This document shows, piece after piece, positions 9,321 to 29,123 of a stretch of DNA of 64,000 nucleotides. The notes beneath the pieces were generated by a model, which was not told where the DNA came from, ran no database searches, and was given only the letters and a program-made list of their open reading frames with translations. Source of the stretch: Promethearchaeota archaeon (lineage in GTDB: Archaea; Asgardarchaeota; Lokiarchaeia; Sigyniarchaeales; SOKP01); assembly GCA_016840165.1 (NCBI GenBank), contig JAEOSU010000067.1:1-64000 (forward strand), read 5' to 3'. The first letter of the stretch is position 1. Each line of letters starts with the position of its first letter. The position numbers and the translations under genes are program-made.

Positions 9321-10838
9321 ATGTCTGACTTATATCAAAAATTAGAGAAAATAGTGTCAGAAAAGTATATTTCGAATGATATTTATGTTCGCCATGCTTA
9401 TTCGCGAAATGTGGATATTGCGTTACAAGGAATACCTGATATTGTAATACGACCAAAAGATGCACAAGAAATCACAGAAATTCTTAAAATTGCTAATGAA
9501 GAAAATAGTGCTGTAATTCCCCGTGGAGCAGGAATTTGTGAGTTTGGAGGAAGTAAACCTATTGGAGATAACGGGATTGTATTAGACTTGAAAAGAATGA
9601 ATAATATCTTAAACTTAGACAAAGAAAATCTCATTGTTACTGCTGAGGCTGGAATTTCTTGGGGCAAATTAAATGAATATCTTTGCCATCATGGTCTTTA
9701 TACAGGTTGTATGGGACCGGGCTCTGGTATGTCAGCATCAATAGGAGGAGGAATTTCTCACCATTCGGTAGGTGGTGGGGGGTGTGCTAAATATGGAGCT
9801 TGCACCAACCAATTAGTTTCATTAGAGGTTGTTTTACCAACTGGAGAGGTTATAGAAACAGGTTCTCAAGCAAATAAACACTCAAAATTTCCATTCAATC
9901 GATTTGGAAATGGCCCAGACTTAGCAGGATTATTCTGTGGAGATAATGGAATTTTTGGCGTGAAAACTAAAGTTTCATTACAAGTGTTTCCTAAGCCAGA
10001 ATATGCTGAGTATAAGACATTTTTATTACCCCGAAAAGAAAGGATAGTTTCAGCAAAAATTTTATCAGAAATTAGACATAAGGGAATTGATGTGTATGAT
10101 GCAATGTATATTATGGATCTTCTTGTCAGAGTGGGTGTTGATCAAGGCTCAATGCCTATGTATGAGAATTTAAAAAGGAAAAGAGGTTTAATTTTTTATA
10201 CTATAGAAGCTAATACTGAAGCAGAATTGGAAGAAAAAGCTAAACAATTAGATGAAATCATGATAAAAAATAAAGCAGAAAATGTTGGCTCAGAAATTTC
10301 AGACGGAAATATAGCTAAATGGCATTATGTTGAACAGGGGCATTGGCAATTCTATCATAATTTATGGGGGATGGTACCGTCCAATCAGCCTTTAACAGCT
10401 GAATCTTTTTGTCCAACAAATAAATATCCAGAAATTCTGAATGATATTGATCAATGGGATATGGAAAATAATGAGAATATGCAAAAGATTTCTGATATTA
10501 CTAAAATGCGACCTATTGCGGGAAGTGGACCAATATTATTAATAGATGGTAATAATGTAGAAATTACATGCGGATTTACAAGCTTCTGGAGTTATTTTGA
10601 CGGTGAGATCCATGATGTCATACAAGAAACAAATTTAAAACTATGGAAATCACTTTTAGAAAGAGTTACAAAACACGGGGTTCAATGGTATATGATGGGA
10701 GATTTTATGTCTCGCTTAATGGTGGATATTGGTGCTTACTCTGAGGAATATTACAACTTCATGAAGTCAATTAAAAAAATTCTTGATCCTAATATGATTT
10801 TAAGTAGAGGTAAATTTAATTTTTGGGGGGATAAATAA
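9321..10838 (+). CDS. FAD-binding oxidoreductase (GlcD/Dld family)
   Basis: PDIVIRP, PRGAG, AEAG, SIGG, LEVVLPTG, GPDLAGLFCGDNGIFGV, DPNMIL motifs. Confidence 0.9.
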   Translation: MSDLYQKLEKIVSEKYISNDIYVRHAYSRNVDIALQGIPDIVIRPKDAQEITEILKIANEENSAVIPRGAGICEFGGSKPIGDNGIVLDLKRMNNILNLDKENLIVTAEAGISWGKLNEYLCHHGLYTGCMGPGSGMSASIGGGISHHSVGGGGCAKYGACTNQLVSLEVVLPTGEVIETGSQANKHSKFPFNRFGNGPDLAGLFCGDNGIFGVKTKVSLQVFPKPEYAEYKTFLLPRKERIVSAKILSEIRHKGIDVYDAMYIMDLLVRVGVDQGSMPMYENLKRKRGLIFYTIEANTEAELEEKAKQLDEIMIKNKAENVGSEISDGNIAKWHYVEQGHWQFYHNLWGMVPSNQPLTAESFCPTNKYPEILNDIDQWDMENNENMQKISDITKMRPIAGSGPILLIDGNNVEITCGFTSFWSYFDGEIHDVIQETNLKLWKSLLERVTKHGVQWYMMGDFMSRLMVDIGAYSEEYYNFMKSIKKILDPNMILSRGKFNFWGDK

Positions 10839-10839
10839 A

Positions 10840-10895
10840 GTGAGTGAATTAAAGCATTTGAAAAATGAATGGGAAGCTATAATGAGTTGTATGGG
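10840..10895 (+). pseudogene. Original 5' fragment (MSELKHLKNEWEAIMSCMG) of the interrupted Fe-S oxidoreductase
   Basis: GTG one base after the GlcD-like stop; joining 10895 to 16492 gives TGT ATG GGT TGT GGG GAT TGT (CMGCGDC) in frame with the 16492-17671 body. Confidence 0.85.
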
Positions 10896-10908
10896 AGAAA
10901 AAAATTTA

Positions 10909-11376
10909 TTAAATAAAGATAAATGTAAGTACTAGAGTAAAATCAATTAATATTAAGAGAGAAAATATAAACCAATAAACCTTTTTTACTTTATTTATAA
11001 ATGAGTCTTTAAATTGAAATTTTACTTCAATAAATTTTTTAACTGATTTAATTTTCTCAGATTCATTTGCATATTCAGTGGGATTAATATATTTAAAAGG
11101 ATGTAAATATTTCTCATCAGAAAATATTTCAAAATTAGTTTCCTCATTTAGATTTAGTTTCTCACTTATTTTTATATTTGTACCTCGCCATTCAGCCCAT
11201 CTTTTATAATGCCTTTCGCTATTTGATTTAATTGTAAATAAAATGAGTACTAAGAATGCTGTTATACTTAATACAAATGAAATTTTACAGATTTTATCTA
11301 AAATTGTGTTTGATATATTAAATAGAAAAGGAATTATGGTTAAAATAGGTATAAAAATTGTCGTTATAGTCATCAA
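10909..11376 (-). CDS. Small multi-TM membrane protein, possibly 5'-truncated
   Basis: Three hydrophobic segments; frame stays open upstream to ~11484 without ATG/GTG/TTG and runs into the start of the divergent ATPase. Confidence 0.55.
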   Translation of the reverse strand: MMTITTIFIPILTIIPFLFNISNTILDKICKISFVLSITAFLVLILFTIKSNSERHYKRWAEWRGTNIKISEKLNLNEETNFEIFSDEKYLHPFKYINPTEYANESEKIKSVKKFIEVKFQFKDSFINKVKKVYWFIFSLLILIDFTLVLTFIFI

Positions 11377-11478
11377 AAATTTTAAATTTTCCCATATTTG
11401 ATTAATGTCAAATAATTCCTTTTCATGATATTTATCATATAAAAATTTTAAATTATCGAAATCAAATTTGCTGGGGTT

Positions 11479-13914
11479 ATGGGATTATTTCTCGTTGGAA
11501 CGATTATTATTATTTCAATTGGAATAATAATCTACATTATAATAATCCCATTTGATAAAGAATACAAAGCCTTAACCATTTTTGTTATTTTTTCCTTGGA
11601 AATATATATTTTAATTACCATTCGAGAATGGCTTCTAGCATTAATATTATTTGGGGCGATTTCATTCGTGGTTTCATTAGGCCATGAATCATTTAGAAAT
11701 AGAATTGTATCCATTTATCAAACAACTTTAGTTTCTTCAAAAAAGACAAGTTCAAAGATATTAAAACCATTAAAGAAGAAAGGTCATAAGAATTCACCTT
11801 TAAAAAATGATAAAAATGGAAAGAACGAGAAGAAGAAAAGAGCTTTATTCTGGCATGCAAGAGTAAAAATCTTACAAGGAACTCTTGAAAAAGAACCAAT
11901 TGAGAAAGACAAGACTAATCAAAATATAAAAACGTGGCTACAAGATTACTTTTCAAACAGTTCAAGATATTGTCTTGAGCTGGTTTCCCATAAAGATTTT
12001 AATTGGACGTTTTTAATGAGAGCTCGAAGGGAAGCTAAAGCACGTATTATTGGGGAAGCATTACTCACTCGTCTTTTAAGTATTTTTCCAGGTGTAGATG
12101 CAGAATTGGAAATTGAACCAGTAACACGCAAGAAAATCTATAAAAACAATGTATTTTGGGAAATCAAACTTCCTAAACCACCATATTTAGAAAAATTTAC
12201 CTTAATCAATGATTTTATAACGATTTTTCATAGAAGTAAACAAGAAATAAAAGTATATATAATGTGGAAAAAAGCAACTCCCAGAAAAATCGAAAAAATC
12301 AGATATAAAATTCAAAGAATGAAATTCAAGGATGAGGATGAGAAAAAGCAATATTTAAAAATGTGGGAAGAGGAACTTTTTCGAGTAAGAATTTTTGTCA
12401 GCTATCGAATTTTTGAAAAAGATCTTAGGGAAAGAGAACTTGAATTACAAAGGATTGAAGGAAGAATTAAGAGTTTAACTATGTCTGGTAGAAATTTGAA
12501 AAAAGCAGCTCAAATTAAAAGAGTCACCTCAGGAACCTATGGTAATATTCTTCGAGTTAATTTATTCTCTGGTAGTTATATCACGCCTTATTGCGTCGAT
12601 TTTGATATTCTTAAAATTACACCTTTAGTAAAACCTTTTACTCTTGAAAGTGAGAATGTGAAATATATCCCTACAGATATCAGTAATCCCGATTATATCT
12701 TAATTGGACGCCACGTGAATCAGGGAAGAAAAACAGAACATCGAATGCTGATTCAAAAGAATGGATTTGCTCAGAGTCTATTAGTAGCAGGGCAACAAGG
12801 CACAGGAAAAACTTATTTATTAGCTCAAATTGTAAACGAATTTCATAAGAAAGCGCCTGATATTGGTATTTTAATCTTGAATCTTGGAAAAGGGAACCAA
12901 GAAGGATTTTATAAGACTGATAAAGTGATTAAATTTGGTTCTCCTGATTTTCATGTTCCTTATTTTGTAAATGGACATTATCTTGAAAGGAGCATTCAAG
13001 AGACTGCTACTTATTTAATTGCTTCAACGGGATTAAAAAACATCGTAGAAAAAAACATGGTTAATGTAATGCAAGCATTTATAGATAAAAAAGGGAAATT
13101 ACCACGTTCATTAAAGTTTTTGTTTAAAGAATTGATAAGATACTTTGATCTCCACCCCTACCATGTAAAATTTCAAACTAATATATTACGAGCACTAAAA
13201 AATAGAGTATTAAGTCTTTTATCAAATCCAGTTCTAGAAAAGGCTATTAATCTAGCTCCTAATGATGAAATCCCTCAATGGTTTAAAGATTGGAGAAAAG
13301 GTAAAAAAGTATTCCTCGATCTCTCAATGTGTAATATTTATGAAAAACGATTAATAACCAATGCGATTTTTCAATTAATTCGCTCTCGCACACCTGATAT
13401 TGAGGTAGGGAAGCTTCAAAATATAATCTTGATTGATGAAGCTCATCAGATTTTAGAGAAATCTATAACCAACAATTATGATGATGATGACTATATTTCA
13501 AGAACTCAATTAGAGAAAATATTCAATGAATTATTGCGAGAATTCCGTTCAAAAGGTTTCTCTTTCATACTTTCTGACCAAACACCTTCAAGGCTTTTCG
13601 ACTGCGTTATTACACTTCCAAGCCTGAAAATATTGTTCCGTGTGGGTCATCCATGTAACACACGATTAGTTGGGAATCAAAAAGAGCAGGATTTTTTAAT
13701 GCTCCAAAAAAATCGACAAGCTTTGGTTCTGAACGGGATTACTGGTGAAAAATATATTATTGAAACTCTAGATTTTTCGTTACCACATCAAGGACCTGAG
13801 GGATCCATTAGATCAATAGATGATCAAAGATTTTGTGAATATTGTGGAACTCAAGTTGATTCTGATGCGAAATTTTGCGATTGCTGTGGAAAACCATTTC
13901 TTTTTTTTGATTAA
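11479..13914 (+). CDS. Membrane-anchored HerA/VirB4/FtsK-superfamily (DUF87-like) ATPase with C-terminal zinc ribbon
   Basis: N-terminal TM helices, Walker A GQQGTGKT, Walker B IILIDEAH, REFRSKG and SDQTPS motifs, CEYC..CDCC tail. Confidence 0.85.
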   Translation: MGLFLVGTIIIISIGIIIYIIIIPFDKEYKALTIFVIFSLEIYILITIREWLLALILFGAISFVVSLGHESFRNRIVSIYQTTLVSSKKTSSKILKPLKKKGHKNSPLKNDKNGKNEKKKRALFWHARVKILQGTLEKEPIEKDKTNQNIKTWLQDYFSNSSRYCLELVSHKDFNWTFLMRARREAKARIIGEALLTRLLSIFPGVDAELEIEPVTRKKIYKNNVFWEIKLPKPPYLEKFTLINDFITIFHRSKQEIKVYIMWKKATPRKIEKIRYKIQRMKFKDEDEKKQYLKMWEEELFRVRIFVSYRIFEKDLRERELELQRIEGRIKSLTMSGRNLKKAAQIKRVTSGTYGNILRVNLFSGSYITPYCVDFDILKITPLVKPFTLESENVKYIPTDISNPDYILIGRHVNQGRKTEHRMLIQKNGFAQSLLVAGQQGTGKTYLLAQIVNEFHKKAPDIGILILNLGKGNQEGFYKTDKVIKFGSPDFHVPYFVNGHYLERSIQETATYLIASTGLKNIVEKNMVNVMQAFIDKKGKLPRSLKFLFKELIRYFDLHPYHVKFQTNILRALKNRVLSLLSNPVLEKAINLAPNDEIPQWFKDWRKGKKVFLDLSMCNIYEKRLITNAIFQLIRSRTPDIEVGKLQNIILIDEAHQILEKSITNNYDDDDYISRTQLEKIFNELLREFRSKGFSFILSDQTPSRLFDCVITLPSLKILFRVGHPCNTRLVGNQKEQDFLMLQKNRQALVLNGITGEKYIIETLDFSLPHQGPEGSIRSIDDQRFCEYCGTQVDSDAKFCDCCGKPFLFFD

Positions 13915-13962
13915 ATCTTCTTATTAGTTTACTTTAAATTAGTCTGTCAAAAAATATATCAA

Positions 13963-14544
13963 ATGAGTGAATATGATGAAGAAGTGGAGAGTGAGGATGC
14001 AACTGATGATTATGAGGAATCTGAAGAATTGGATGAAGATGCCACAGATGACTATGAACCATTAGATGAAAATGAGGAACTTGAGAATGAAACTGACGAA
14101 GAGCTTGAAAATGATTTCGAACCGTTGGATGAAACTGATGAACTTGAAGACGAAATTGAGAATGATTTCGATCCTCGTGATGAATATGAAGATTTAGAAA
14201 AGGATAAAGAAGAACTTGAGGATTCTCAAGATAATCCTAAAGATATTAATGAAATAACTAAAGATAACTCTAGAGATGGCTTAAATAATAAACAATATCA
14301 TACAATGAGACTTGATGTCCCTCCTGGACGCTTCCCCCCAGAAAAACCAAAAGTTAGACGCCAAAAAGAGAAGAATCCAAGACCTCCTAAAAAAAAAGGG
14401 AAACTAATCGATTGGAATAGATTAAAGAAAATGTTACCCCTTAAAAAAAGGAAGAAAAAGATTTTTACAAAAAATGTTGAAGAACTCAAGGAAGAACTTA
14501 CGACTGTCAAATATAAAGAATTAAAGTATAAAAAACATAAATAA
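13963..14544 (+). CDS. Low-complexity protein with acidic repeat N-terminus and basic C-terminus
   Basis: Repeats EDATDDYE x2 and ENDFEPLDE/ENDFDPRDE, then Lys/Pro-rich tail. Confidence 0.7.
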   Translation: MSEYDEEVESEDATDDYEESEELDEDATDDYEPLDENEELENETDEELENDFEPLDETDELEDEIENDFDPRDEYEDLEKDKEELEDSQDNPKDINEITKDNSRDGLNNKQYHTMRLDVPPGRFPPEKPKVRRQKEKNPRPPKKKGKLIDWNRLKKMLPLKKRKKKIFTKNVEELKEELTTVKYKELKYKKHK

Positions 14545-14559
14545 CAAGGTGAAAATCTC

Positions 14560-16278
14560 ATAGGAGAATATGGGGAGGACGATTCCAAAGAAGAGAATAA
14601 GGAAATTGACAATAAGCTCAATCAAATAATAAAAAAAAAAAATAGTGAACTAATCAATGATTTTGAGCCTCTTGAAGAAAACCAAGATTTAAATGAAAGT
14701 CTTGAATCTAAATTTGAACCTAAAGATGAATCAAAATATATAAAAAATGACTTTGAAAAATATGAGCCAAATTCTGAATTTGAACATATAAATTATAACT
14801 ATAAAAGTAAAGAAAATTCAAAAAATGAAGGTTTCGATATTGAAAAGATTAAAAAAGCGATTAAAAAAAAGGATTGGGATGAAATTTCAAAGGATTGGAC
14901 AATCAAAATCCAAAAAAATCAGTATTCAGACATAGAGACTATTCAATTAAATCCTAGTCAAGATATTTCCAAGGAGAATCCCTTATATAAACATAAAGAG
15001 TGGTTAAATACAATCTATAATAATAAGCAATTAAACTTATATGACAAAGAAATTGGAAAAATTTGTGGAGTCAATACTTCTACAATTGGGAAATGGCGAA
15101 AAAAACATAATATACCAATAAAACCTTTAGGTAAAGGAAGATATATAGACAGAAGAAGTGGTAGAGTATATATTCGAGTTCCGAAAGATTATAATCACCC
15201 AGAATTGGGAAATTATAAAGATAGGATAAGAAATTTTCGACTAGAACATATTTATGTAATAGAACAGTATTTATCAAAACATCCTGAACTAGAAATCTCA
15301 AAGAAATTCTTAATAGATGGTAAATATTTAAAAATTGGATGTGAAATCCACCATATAAATCAAAATCCTCAAGACAATAAAATAGAAAATTTATGGGTCT
15401 ATAAAACAAAAAATGATCATGCTGAAGGTGAATTATCTTTGCGGGATTCTTTACAATTTTTAATAAAAACAAATCGAATTAGATTTAAAGATGGGAGATA
15501 CTATATAAATCAAGATAATAATTCTACTTTAAATCATTCTACTGAAGTTTCTATAAATCAAGATATTAAAGAACCTATCAATTATAAAGACATAAATTTA
15601 GTTAAAGATGAAATTAAAAAGATTAGTTGGGAAAAAATTTCAAATAATTGGACCGTAAAAAATCGAATCAACCAATTTGTAGAAAAAAAGATTCAAGTAG
15701 ATCCTACGAGGGAATGTTCAGTTGAAAATCCGCTCTATAAACATAAAGAATGGGTTGAAAGAATAATTAAAGATAAACGCTATAATTTAACAGATTCTAG
15801 ATTTGGAAAATTATGTGGAATATCAAGGGATAAAGCACGGTACTGGAGGGATAAAGTCCATAATATTAAAGGAAAAACAGATTGGGGCTATGACCGTATT
15901 GTTGATCCTAGTGATGGAAGAATTTGGATTAAGGTACCTGATGATTATGAAAATCCTATTGTTAAGAAGGAAGATCATCAACGTCGAAATATGTTAGAAC
16001 ATCGTTATAATATGGAACGATATCTTTCTGAACATCCAGAACTTAGAATTACTCAAGAAGCTTTAATCGATGGTAAATATTTAAAAACAGAATATCAAGT
16101 ACACCATATAAACTTAGACTTTCAAGATAATAGAATAGAAAACTTATGGGTTTTTAAAAACAATAAACTTCATCTGAAGGCTAGAGAATCTCTATATGCT
16201 CTAGTGGAAGATTTATTAAAACAAACTCAAATCATTTTCAAGGATGGAAAATATGAAATAAATAAAGAAAAGAATTAA
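14560..16278 (+). CDS. 572-aa protein: acidic NDFEPL leader plus two tandem HTH-HNH endonuclease units; probable ATA start
   Basis: Frame open from ATA 14560 (AGGTGA upstream) into the listed 15205 ORF; two copies of ENPLYKHKEW..GKxCG..W and EH..IHHIN..QDN.IENLWV. Confidence 0.85.
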   Translation: MGEYGEDDSKEENKEIDNKLNQIIKKKNSELINDFEPLEENQDLNESLESKFEPKDESKYIKNDFEKYEPNSEFEHINYNYKSKENSKNEGFDIEKIKKAIKKKDWDEISKDWTIKIQKNQYSDIETIQLNPSQDISKENPLYKHKEWLNTIYNNKQLNLYDKEIGKICGVNTSTIGKWRKKHNIPIKPLGKGRYIDRRSGRVYIRVPKDYNHPELGNYKDRIRNFRLEHIYVIEQYLSKHPELEISKKFLIDGKYLKIGCEIHHINQNPQDNKIENLWVYKTKNDHAEGELSLRDSLQFLIKTNRIRFKDGRYYINQDNNSTLNHSTEVSINQDIKEPINYKDINLVKDEIKKISWEKISNNWTVKNRINQFVEKKIQVDPTRECSVENPLYKHKEWVERIIKDKRYNLTDSRFGKLCGISRDKARYWRDKVHNIKGKTDWGYDRIVDPSDGRIWIKVPDDYENPIVKKEDHQRRNMLEHRYNMERYLSEHPELRITQEALIDGKYLKTEYQVHHINLDFQDNRIENLWVFKNNKLHLKARESLYALVEDLLKQTQIIFKDGKYEINKEKN

Positions 16279-16374
16279 AATAATACAGTTGGCTAGAATG
16301 GCAATATTAAGAAATTTTAATTATTAATGAAATTATATTCTTTTTATCTTAGAAAAAAATTTATTGCTGTAATA

Positions 16375-16449
16375 ATGTCAAAATTGAAAAATTTAAAAGA
16401 ACAATGGCAGGCCATAATGTCCTGTATAGGTTTTGGAATCTCTCCTTAA
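16375..16449 (+). CDS. Element-borne replacement 5' fragment of the Fe-S oxidoreductase (MSKLKNLKEQWQAIMSCIG-FGISP*)
   Basis: 13/19 aa identical to the 10840 fragment with diverged codons; out of frame with the gene body unless 61 nt are skipped. Confidence 0.8.
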   Translation: MSKLKNLKEQWQAIMSCIGFGISP

Positions 16450-16502
16450 TCGCGGAAAGGTTTATAATTATATTTATAACTCCCGCTTGGGTTGTGGGGA
16501 TT
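16437..16502 (+). other. Terminal imperfect hairpin at the element's right end (within the 61-nt coding gap)
   Basis: GCGG(16452-55)/CCGC(16483-86) and TTATAA/TTATAA inner stem; CTTAA/TTGGG and AATCTCT/GGGGATT outer pairing. Confidence 0.6.
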
Positions 16503-17671
16503 GTGGGTATGCTATTAGACCATTTGTTGGAAGATATTTAACTTGTCCTGTGAAAGAGGCAAAAGGTGAAGAGGGTTTCGAAATTTATTTTGCTCGTGGT
16601 CGAATGAATGTGTTAAAGAGTATCTTGGAAGGACAAATTCCACTAAGCAAGGAACTCGCTGAGTGGATATATGAATGTTCTGAATGTGGAAATTGTACAG
16701 AAGTTTGCCATATGACACATAATGAACATATCATTTTACCAACAAGCAAGTGGATCGATCATGTAAAAGTATGGGATGCTTTGAGAAGAGATTTAGTAGA
16801 AGCTGGGTTTGCTCCCCTTGATCACCATGAGGAATTGGTTCAATATATGAACAATGATGATATGAAAAATCCATACGGTGAAGATAAAGCTAAAAAATTT
16901 GAGTGGGCGAAAGAATTTCCAAATATTAAAAATAAGGGAGAATTTGTATTTTTTGCTGGTTGTACAATGCCATTAAGACAAGCTGACACATTAAAAAGCA
17001 TGATGAAAGTTTTACAATCATCAGGAATGGAAATTGCATTATCAAAAGACGAATGGTGTTGTGGCTCTATTGGAATCCGAATAGGCGAATATAAATCTGT
17101 GGACGAACTTTTAAAACACAATCTCGAAATTTTCAAGAATATGGGTGCGAAAACAGTATTTACTGCTTGTGCAGGGTGTTATAGAACTTTAAAGAAAGAT
17201 TATCCTGAGCTGTTGAGCGAGGAATTACCCTTCGAAGTAAAACATATTACAGAAGTTTTAGTTGAATTGATAAATAATAACAAAATATTATTCGATTCTG
17301 CTAAAGAGGAACAAATAAAAGTAACATATCATGATCCTTGTCATCTAGGACGTCATATGGATTTGTATGAAATACCAAGAGAAATTATTGCTAAAATTCC
17401 TGGTGTTGAATTGATAGAAATGAAGAGAAATCGAAAACACGCATGGTGTTGTGGTGCAGGTGGAGGTGTGAAAAGCCAATTTCCAGACTTAGCGAAAGAT
17501 ATTTCGAAAGAAAGAATTAGAGAGGCAGTAGAATCCGGAGCAGATATATTAACAACTAGTTGTCCTTTTTGTATAGGAAATCTGAATGATGCATATGATG
17601 AAATGGAGCTGGAGATTAAAGAAAAAATTAAATTAATTGACATCATTGATTTTATTGCTTCAAAAATTTAG
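16492..17671 (+). CDS. (Fe-S)-binding oxidoreductase, GlpC/HdrD-like with two CCG domains; 3' body of the interrupted gene (ORF track starts it at TTG 16433)
   Basis: CGDC...TCP, ARGR, CSECGNCTEVC, FFAGC, WCCG, ACAGC, YHDPCHLGR, CCGAGGG, SCPFC. Confidence 0.9.
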
Positions 17672-28963: not shown

Positions 28964-29123
28964 GGCCCGGTACGGGAATTGTTCCAACGAGAAGAAAATT
29001 CTCATTATTTGAACCCGTCTCTAGGGATTCACATTAGGGTCTCTATTGGAAATAGAAATGTCCCCAATACTAACCACTCTACACATATCCAGTTATTCTG
29101 GGATGTTCTATACAAACCGGGCC
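28964..29123 (-). tRNA. tRNA-His(GUG) with three introns (15/16: 29107-29077; 32/33: 29059-29034; 58/59: 29008-28979)
   Basis: Spliced sequence G-GCCCGGT TT GTAT AGTGGTTA GTAT T GGGGA CTGTGAA TCCCT AGAG ACGGG TTCAATT CCCGT ACCGGGC C folds as a cloverleaf with the G-1:C73 His identity pair; each intron sits in a BHB motif. Confidence 0.88.

Follow-up and report, generated by a model that had tools for sequence, protein, structure and literature searches.

By the account given in PMC7714728, the bulge-helix-bulge (BHB) intron in the cbf5 pre-mRNA of Crenarchaeota (Watanabe 2002; Yokobori 2009) was as of 2020 the only example in a coding region, and the intron of Haloferax HVO_1309 lies in a 5'-untranslated region. 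Nucleases that stand outside the intron they serve have been described in a different setting. As summarized in PMC6083498, the free-standing endonuclease F-CphI is encoded beside the intron-containing psbA gene of cyanophage S-PM2 (Zeng, Bonocora and Shub, 2009), and in collaborative homing, as the same source outlines it, a free-standing nuclease cleaves the insertion site in alleles that lack the intron, and alleles that have the intron are protected by its presence. T4 mobE with I-TevIII is a related collaborative case (PMC2790892). Several routes were tested in a 2026 census of Asgard tRNA introns, which concluded that "how they arrive remains open" (10.64898/2026.10.13.758758). Here we describe a locus that bears on how archaeal BHB introns reach new sites. 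It lies in a 64,000-nt stretch of the genome of a Promethearchaeota archaeon (GCA_016840165.1, contig JAEOSU010000067.1, positions 1 to 64,000; the whole stretch is referred to below as the window), where a glpC gene, encoding a GlcF/GlpC/TfrB-like iron-sulfur (Fe-S) protein, is split by 5.6 kb of foreign DNA that carries an HNH nuclease gene, a second first exon and two nested mini-introns. The explanation we favor, and hold to be moderately probable, is that a cassette of HNH gene, exon 1 and intron spreads in a manner resembling collaborative homing, that an ATPase module has hitchhiked with it, and that the gene is mended at the level of RNA.

The principal features are as follows; in sequence motifs, a caret marks the boundary between exon and intron.

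9321-10838, plus strand: GlcD-like FAD-linked oxidase gene, the conserved left neighbor (Pfam FAD_binding_4, 2.4e-33)
10840-10895, plus strand: N1, the stranded original 5' exon of the GlcF/GlpC/TfrB-like gene (GTG start, end TGTAT^GGG)
14560-16278, plus strand: tandemly duplicated helix-turn-helix (HTH) and HNH_3 protein, candidate free-standing homing endonuclease (Pfam HNH_3, 2.2e-12, two stretches)
16375-16427, plus strand: N2, the replacement exon 1 (ATG ... TCC TGT AT, ending two bases into the 5' bulge)
16428-16457, plus strand: intron A, 30 nt (central helix CUGU/GCGG, bulges AU^A and AA^G, inner hairpin)
16458-16488, plus strand: intron B, 31 nt (central helix GCGG/CCGC, bulges AA^A and UU^G)
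16489-17671, plus strand: exon 2, the GlcF/GlpC/TfrB/HdrD-like Fe-S protein body (4Fe-4S dicluster and two CCG domains)

The GlcD-like gene (NCBIfam glcD, 1.9e-40, under the equivalog cut-off) is syntenic in all relatives and stops at TAA 10836-10838, and intact alleles of glpC in the genus start one base after it. In the window, glpC opens in this way as N1, which runs from GTG 10840 and encodes MSELKHLKNEWEAIMSCMG; the text of the host gene ends after TGTATGGG (10888-10895), the N1 frame continues into the insert as far as a stop at 10933-10935, and the gene body restarts at GGGTTGTGGGGATTGT (16489 onward, with the end of the open reading frame (ORF) at 17671). Both junctions carry TGGG (10892-10895 and 16488-16491), and deletion of 10896-16491 (5,596 bp) yields TGT ATG GGT TGT GGG GAT TGT, or CMGCGDC. 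The insert splits the gene exactly at its first CxxCxxC motif, at TGTAT^GGG, which is precisely where the mini-intron of relatives sits. An insertion splitting the gene at this motif had been the starting point of the initial annotation, and it is confirmed by contigs from two studies that bridge both junctions. Specifically, the per-run contigs X1 (6,551 nt) and X3 (6,555 nt) span ~10800-17353 with zero differences, and in X5, from the second study and a strain ~91-97% identical, the left (10797-11466) and right (16106-16701) junctions are both bridged. It is practically certain that the 5,596-bp insertion is real and not a misassembly. The empty alleles that the annotation had proposed to look for at this locus also exist: uninterrupted alleles account for 17 of 29 in the genus set, the closest relative (L117, 88% protein identity) has one, and in a mangrove metagenome contig (X7, 94% identical) 10893 is joined directly to 16492 and the sequence reads CMNCGDC. 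Contigs from the source sample (X1, place 10895) match N1 as far as 10895 and then run into an intact gene body (GTGCGGCGATTGTGG...), so that related species with uninterrupted alleles co-occur with this organism. Terminal inverted repeats or a target-site duplication of the transposon type were sought at the insert, with chance-level AT-rich matches only.

The short inserts at TGYAT^GGG are all homologous to one another and were found in 18 alleles (12 from the genus, 3 from other genera of the family and 3 from additional metagenome-assembled genomes, MAGs), both with and without a large upstream insertion. Most measure 29-34 nt, and those of the window, G004, G019 and G141 are double, at 56-61 nt. 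We parsed 19 intron units from 15 alleles under a model of outer helix, bulge, central helix, bulge and inner helix (h-B-H-B-h'), and BHB anatomy fits all 19. Four bases of the exon (NUGY) are paired with four of the intron (GCAN); the 5' bulge comprises two exon bases and the first intron base (AU^A), with the inner hairpin abutting, and the 3' bulge comprises the last two intron bases and the first base of exon 2 (AA^G). The central helix H is paired at 73 of 76 positions, as against 14-43 when its 3' partner is slid by 1-3 nt, and none of 5000 permutations reaches 73. RNAalifold, unguided, recovers H, a 3-nt bulge and the inner hairpin, with double compensatory changes in 8 of 12 pairs and the H1:H'4 pair seen as UA, CG, UG, GC and GU. 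In every unit the inner helix h' forms a good hairpin and shows compensatory changes. Intron A of the window is homologous to intron A of the three other double inserts, and intron B is nested exactly at its 3' splice junction, using the GCGG of intron A as the exon-side strand of its own helix. That helix is GCGG/CCGC in the window versus GCAG/CUGC in G019 and G141, so that the change on one strand is compensated on the other. In the minimum-free-energy fold of 16410-16510 the helix and hairpin of intron B are formed, and removal of intron B recreates the motif of intron A.

Splicing in silico gives TGY ATG GGN TGY, and hence C-M-G-C-G-D-C in frame, in 15 of 15 alleles parsed despite their differing intron lengths. 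The genome also encodes splicing enzymes, with PF01974 (EndA) found twice (C14:37158 and C4:49673) and RtcB at C64:11156; the two EndA paralogues are consistent with a two-subunit enzyme. Exon 2 (Pfam CCG, 9.1e-41, with Fer4_8; NCBIfam TfrB/GlcF/GlpC-like) contains no stop or frameshift in any of the 18 intron-bearing alleles. Its ratio of nonsynonymous to synonymous substitution (dN/dS) is 0.05-0.14 between intron-bearing pairs (dS 0.3-1.8), compared with 0.07-0.10 between intact pairs, and 0.058 for the window against G092; by these ratios exon 2 is under purifying selection. Taken from the pairing patterns and reading frames, it is very probable that the introns are spliced by EndA and that the gene is mended in RNA.

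The second N-terminus, N2, opens at ATG 16375 as MSKLKNLKEQWQAIMSCI. That it is a diverged and selected counterpart of the first 19 codons, as originally proposed, is supported, as its protein is 13/19 identical to that of N1 and its Ser codons both belong to a different family (AGT/AGT in N1 versus TCA/TCC in N2). Other parts of that proposal did not hold. N2 had been thought to be recoded so as to escape cleavage, whereas it has the marks of an ordinary exon 1: it is identical at 51 of 53 nt to exon 1 of L119, though exon 2 of L119 is only 83% protein-identical, and its nearest relatives in the panel (G160, G007 and G132) are all HNH-linked. By this kinship, N2 is the natural first exon of the intron-bearing allele type present in 18 relatives. 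Nor is it a replacement ready for use, because 61 nt of nested BHB introns, which occur also in relatives without the large insert, separate it from the gene body. The Ile that N2 seemed to encode at position 19 is likewise an artefact: A 16428 is the first intron base, and since splicing at the bulges gives UGY AUG GGN UGY, the Ile codon is apparent only and the spliced message would carry Met as in intact alleles. N1 is 91% identical in nucleotides to exon 1 of the intact allele G140 and has the AGT Ser typical of intact alleles. The Ser before the Cys is UCN in 18 of 18 intron-bearing alleles; among intact alleles it is AGY 13 times and UCN 5 times (18 counted, the N1 of the window included). 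This switch of codon family has a structural reason, since the UC of the UCN codon pairs with the GG of exon 2 to form the short outer helix of the splicing motif. The start codon and frame of exon 1 are kept in every intron-bearing allele, and displaced N1 copies are truncated. We also observed that the 3' half of exon 1 (GCCATAATGTCCTGTAT) is identical in the window, G007, G132, L119 and L121, which have otherwise diverged, and that CCAUAAU.UCC of exon 1 (16410-16427) can pair with GGG.AUUGUGG of exon 2 (16489-16510) beyond the outer helix; such extended pairing between the exons may keep the splice sites together.

The HNH nuclease was put forward at the outset as a possible driver of mobility, and it is the best candidate; its gene recurs directly upstream of intron-bearing exon 1. 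The arrangement is found in seven genomes of four genera: the window, G152 and G007 (same genus), G092, G132, G160, and G074/G161, where the HNH gene is a truncated remnant with a TGA. The HNH genes adjacent to glpC are the closest relatives of that of the window, and an HNH gene never stands beside an intact allele (17 intact alleles lack one). The frame is open from 14545 (577 codons, 14545-16278) and encodes two tandem HTH and HNH_3 modules with PHROG HNH endonuclease matches; the motif LEHRY...VHHINL.QDNR.ENLW...H is unchanged in five glpC-adjacent homologues. A PDB sequence search with the protein returned nothing below E = 0.9. We considered whether TAA 14542 might be a nonsense mutation in one long ORF joining the HNH protein to the acidic protein encoded upstream of it, and rejected this reading because the HNH gene of G092 starts at the position of ATA 14560; the separate short acidic proteins that follow ATPase homologues elsewhere also rule out a fused ORF.

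The direction of the change can be read from the remains of the old exon. N1 remnants beside glcD measure 57 nt in the window, ~43 in G132, 39 in G092 and 19 in G004 (G152 has none), and none passes the intron site, that of the window ending at the site plus 3 nt. Site-specific recombination at TGGG, as first supposed, does not accord with remnants that end at four different positions across genomes; the variation suggests break repair instead. Because N1 is of the intact type, the kin of N2 are HNH-linked and the closest relatives are intact, what took place in this lineage was that an intron-less allele was converted. At least 7 changes in intron state and at least 5 in HNH adjacency are required on the exon 2 tree, and monophyly of the intron-bearing alleles is rejected (490 log-likelihood units, p-AU, from the approximately unbiased test, 1.4e-9). 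Exon 1 of G152, G004 and G138 are 89-94% identical to one another, yet in exon 2 each has intact alleles as its sisters; the type of exon 1 goes with intron state and not with exon 2 clade, and intact alleles generally carry an AGY-Ser exon 1.

The remainder of the insert consists of the following.

10896-10910, plus strand: left copy of the 15-bp direct repeat AGAAAAAAATTTATT, starting exactly at the junction with the first insert base
10909-11376, minus strand: ORF155, membrane-protein-like, 155 aa, cargo that may not be a gene (no Pfam, PHROG or PADLOC match)
11479-13914, plus strand: P-loop ATPase, 811 aa, HerA/mad8-like, cargo (weak AAA/HerA/mad8 and zinc-ribbon matches)
13963-14544, plus strand: acidic protein, partner of the ATPase, 193 aa, cargo (acidic NDFEP-repeat N-terminus, basic C-terminus)
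16351-16365, plus strand: right copy of AGAAAAAAATTTATT, 9 nt upstream of the exon 1 start codon

The insert is single-copy in the genome and its outer ends share only TGGG. It was initially regarded as one discrete element, a view that does not survive comparison, since only the HNH gene, exon 1 and mini-intron recur and the ATPase and the rest differ from genome to genome. The six other HNH-exon 1 loci have no ATPase, and their cargo consists of a toxin-antitoxin (TA) pair, leucine-rich repeat (LRR), tetratricopeptide repeat (TPR), transmembrane (TM) or short-chain dehydrogenase/reductase (SDR) genes. The interval between glcD and the HNH gene holds ORF155, the ATPase and the acidic protein in the window, a 543-aa protein and LRR proteins in G092, and TPR and zinc-ribbon proteins in G132. 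In G161/G074:C55 (L130), a pair that by eye is Phd/YefM-like and RelE/ParE-like lies at 803-1364 between glcD and the truncated HNH gene, and the exon 1 beside that remnant is identical to N2 of the window at 51 of 53 nt. Membrane proteins occupy the DNA after glcD in G004, and an SDR gene does so in four genomes without an HNH gene. Because the upstream DNA differs in every genome, the 5.6 kb is composite; judged by recurrence, the conserved unit is the HNH gene with exon 1 and the intron, and the left 3.6 kb is hitchhiking cargo.

The ATPase has N-terminal TM helices and a C-terminal zinc ribbon. It is single-copy in its own genome; its family is multi-copy and present in 94 of 161 genomes of the class, at unrelated loci, and is usually followed by a protein with an acidic leader. 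At L050, for instance, an ATPase homologue precedes a 30%-identical acidic protein. Across L050-L053 (G017:C78, G089:C75, G085:C27 and G076:C7), as at 11479-14544 of the window, we noted that the ATPase is followed by proteins with (N/E)DFEP-repeat leaders and varied C-termini; in G089 and G085 the acidic-leader version (890 and 710 aa) ends in what we take, by eye, to be a Hint-type motif and stands beside what seems to be an NrdD-like gene. The ATPase and the acidic-leader protein may be a motor and its substrate. Relatives of the ATPase were sought in IMG/VR viral contigs by a pattern method, with none found. It had also been proposed to look at whether homologous ATPase-HNH modules elsewhere sit in split genes; the closest ATPase homologues adjoin neither glpC nor any split gene.

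How might such a locus arise and still be expressed? Under the favored account, transcription would start upstream of N2, and EndA would cut in the 3-nt bulges, removing intron B first and then intron A. RtcB would join the exons to give ...UGU AUG GGU UGU..., or SCMGCGDC, and a normal Fe-S protein. At the level of DNA, the HNH enzyme would cut intron-less alleles at or near the intron insertion site, for example in an intact site such as ...TGTATGGGNTGYGGNGAYTG..., and the intron would shield its own allele; tandem duplication of the HNH module would supply two active sites for a double-strand cut. Repair would then copy the intron, exon 1, the HNH gene and any upstream DNA from a cassette donor. 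Exon 2 would supply homology on the right side. On the left, exon 1 (57 nt, ~65% nucleotide identity) would be too short and too diverged to anneal and capture the end, and the left end would for that reason be joined without homology. Synthesis would continue through the nuclease gene and cargo until a homology-free join (TGGG here) or homology in glcD (G152) was reached, and the left join may include a 15-nt templated copy of sequence from upstream of N2. Reasoning by analogy with the phage systems, we regard HNH-driven homing as the route of arrival as an evenly balanced proposition. The broader statement, that minimal BHB introns invade Asgard protein genes by way of a cassette of HNH gene, 5' exon and intron that seeds a variable gene island, we offer only tentatively.

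Several observations weigh against this account. The outer helix h at the 3' bulge has 2-3 invariant bp in intron A and 2-6 bp in intron B, and the BHB motif is for intron A therefore to be called relaxed at the 3' site. A crude genome-wide search for mRNA BHB introns, based on BHB geometry and the merging of two open frames, gave 723 candidates versus 679-712 when the 3' site was shifted by 1-2 nt, which is no excess, though with a filter crude enough to miss the glpC intron on C79. The HNH gene of the window begins at ATA 14560, where G092 has ATG, and its first canonical start is TTG 15205; the HNH gene of two relatives contains stop codons, so several copies may be decaying. Most members of the HNH family lie at unrelated loci with no visible intron. 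Conversely, the intron-bearing alleles of G138, G019 and G003 have no nearby HNH gene, and four have only the SDR gene upstream. A co-conversion tract in exon 2 was not seen in the recently converted G152, G004 and G020, and in G138 the first 60 nt show no more than a weak dip. The perfect 15-bp repeat, which brackets ORF155 through the HNH gene (5.45 kb), is accommodated only ad hoc. Lastly, because kin are not independent, the counts overstate their support.

Some of these observations would be expected if there were no directed mobility at all. On that alternative, the intron-bearing allele is an old type, the glcD-glpC spacer is a tolerated hot spot for insertions and deletions, exon 1 has its own promoter, and the HNH gene is one island gene of many, perhaps an effector of the ATPase system; intact alleles would come from precise intron loss or recombination between strains. 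Cargo that differs in each genome, the missing conversion tracts in exon 2 and the location of most HNH relatives at other loci are all in keeping with it. Selection for an intact glcD alone would confine left junctions to the N1 region, and the homology of all introns at the site is consistent with a single origin. However, the N1 of the window is of the intact type and breaks off exactly at the intron site, and intact alleles are what the nearest relatives carry (94% in nucleotides, 88% in amino acids), which points to gain and not loss. Moreover, in seven genomes of four genera the HNH gene directly adjoins exon 1, whereas all that lies further upstream is variable, no N1 remnant extends beyond the intron site, and exon 1 type tracks intron state and not exon 2 clade. 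We consider this alternative unlikely, though it fares best of those that compete with the homing-like account.

Less probable still is that the whole 5.6 kb is one site-specific integrating element, whose circle recombines at TGGG or the 15-bp repeat by means of an unknown recombinase or HNH homing and which brings a rescue N-terminus. TGGG at both junctions speaks for such an element, as does the perfect repeat, of which the 3.6-Mb genome (7.2 Mb over both strands) holds only 3 copies, 2 of them at this locus. The patchy, multi-copy distribution of the ATPase family resembles that of a mobile-element gene, and an acidic NDFEP leader is common to the HNH protein and the partner of the ATPase. 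A direct repeat like the 15-bp one is what would remain if a 5.45-kb circle had entered N1-24 nt-N2 by Campbell integration; alternatively, the repeat could be a templated insertion at a break-repair junction. Yet if the 15-mer is taken as the attachment (att) site, excision leaves N1, 24 nt and N2, and the cassette explanation is still needed. That the insert has no integrase or transposase, as first noted, stands for all of its ORFs: none in 10896-16491 has an integrase, transposase, relaxase or other recombinase domain by Pfam, PHROGs, PADLOC or NCBIfam. Six other HNH-exon 1 loci do without the ATPase, whose closest homologues are beside neither glpC nor split genes; the N1 remnants end at four positions; and the rescue exon is unfused, its introns existing without the element in G138, G019, G003 and L121. 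Exact-match scans, which possibly excluded the organism's own genome and so weigh on neither side, found no whole-insert circle junction and no N1-repeat-N2 form in metagenome contigs, and no circle junction at the 15-bp repeat in genome contigs. That the 30- and 61-nt inserts go unspliced, with the gene inactivated, bypassed in translation or expressed from an internal start, is very improbable despite the weak outer helix and the matching GGU codons that flank the gap of the window in the manner of T4 gene 60, given the low dN/dS (0.05-0.14, at dS up to 1.8) without a stop or frameshift in 18 alleles, the upkeep of exon 1 while displaced N1 copies decay, the BHB fit of all units, the 30-nt alleles (e.g., G022) that lack matching take-off and landing codons, on which translational bypassing was rejected, and the lack of an in-frame start before Met-39 of exon 2, so that an internal start would remove the first Fe-S motif.

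Two further observations concern introns of this kind elsewhere. ARAGORN found no tRNA on the unmodified window, and a tRNA-His(GUG) call (28964-29123, minus strand) appears once segments of ~31, 26 and 30 nt are removed, one of which resembles the glpC mini-introns by eye (4-bp helix, AA^A-type bulges); this too speaks for splicing of the glpC introns. The same MAG also contains a second glcD-glpC locus (L042, G000:C79:40875-42140), 73% identical in amino acids and with a 31-nt mini-intron, in which 1.3 kb of other ORFs lie between glcD and exon 1; this second locus is a paralogue or else stems from contamination (MAG contamination is 6.3%).

If the homing-like account is true, no DNA-level route by which nuclease-less BHB introns arrive would have been shown before this one, and the locus would also hold the first nested "twintron" of this kind in an mRNA. 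It is a polymorphic and recently converted site that combines a candidate nuclease, a stranded-exon scar and intact alleles in close relatives, and with these three features a few oligonucleotides and two recombinant proteins would suffice to test splicing as well as homing. There is a consequence for annotation as well, as in about half of the genus's genomes gene callers will present this gene as truncated or split. More broadly, the locus shows how a variable island could form around a selfish nuclease, and it does so in the prokaryotic lineages closest to eukaryotes, where the origin of introns matters specially.

The closest parallel is F-CphI with psbA. In both cases the nuclease gene lies outside the intron and directly beside the intron-containing gene, an intron without a nuclease ORF of its own interrupts the presumed target, intron-less relatives exist, and nuclease and intron are co-inherited. 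The present intron, however, is a 30-nt protein-spliced archaeal BHB intron and not a self-splicing group I intron, its host is a cellular Asgard archaeon and not a phage, and the nuclease is a tandem HTH-HNH_3 protein whose cleavage is predicted only; in addition, a replacement 5' exon and kilobases of cargo travel along and the old exon is left stranded. With cbf5 the locus shares a tRNA-type BHB intron in a coding transcript, whose removal by EndA and a ligase is required for the reading frame. It differs in gene and lineage (Promethearchaeota), and its introns, with splicing predicted, vary in presence between close relatives, form nested pairs in four genomes and are linked to a nuclease gene.

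Some archaeal rRNA and tRNA BHB introns encode LAGLIDADG homing endonucleases of the I-DmoI and I-PorI type. Those introns are likewise BHB-spliced and depend for their spread at the DNA level on an endonuclease that cuts the intron-less site, as is proposed here; but they carry the nuclease inside a long intron of a stable RNA, whereas the glpC introns are minimal, at 30 nt, and the HNH gene is separate and upstream. The SXT/R391 integrative and conjugative elements (ICEs) rely on a tyrosine integrase with an att core, and prfC receives its new 5' end from them by direct fusion. There, as in the window, the 5' end of a host gene is pushed aside by incoming DNA that brings a functional substitute with its own promoter; in contrast, no integrase was found in the window insert, the left junction is not the same in every genome, and introns stand between the new 5' end and the rest of the gene. 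The parts of this system are thus known, in the mRNA BHB intron of cbf5 and in the free-standing nuclease that cooperates with an intron. Their combination, a nested and nuclease-less 30-nt BHB intron in an Asgard protein gene together with a replacement exon and cargo, appears to be new.

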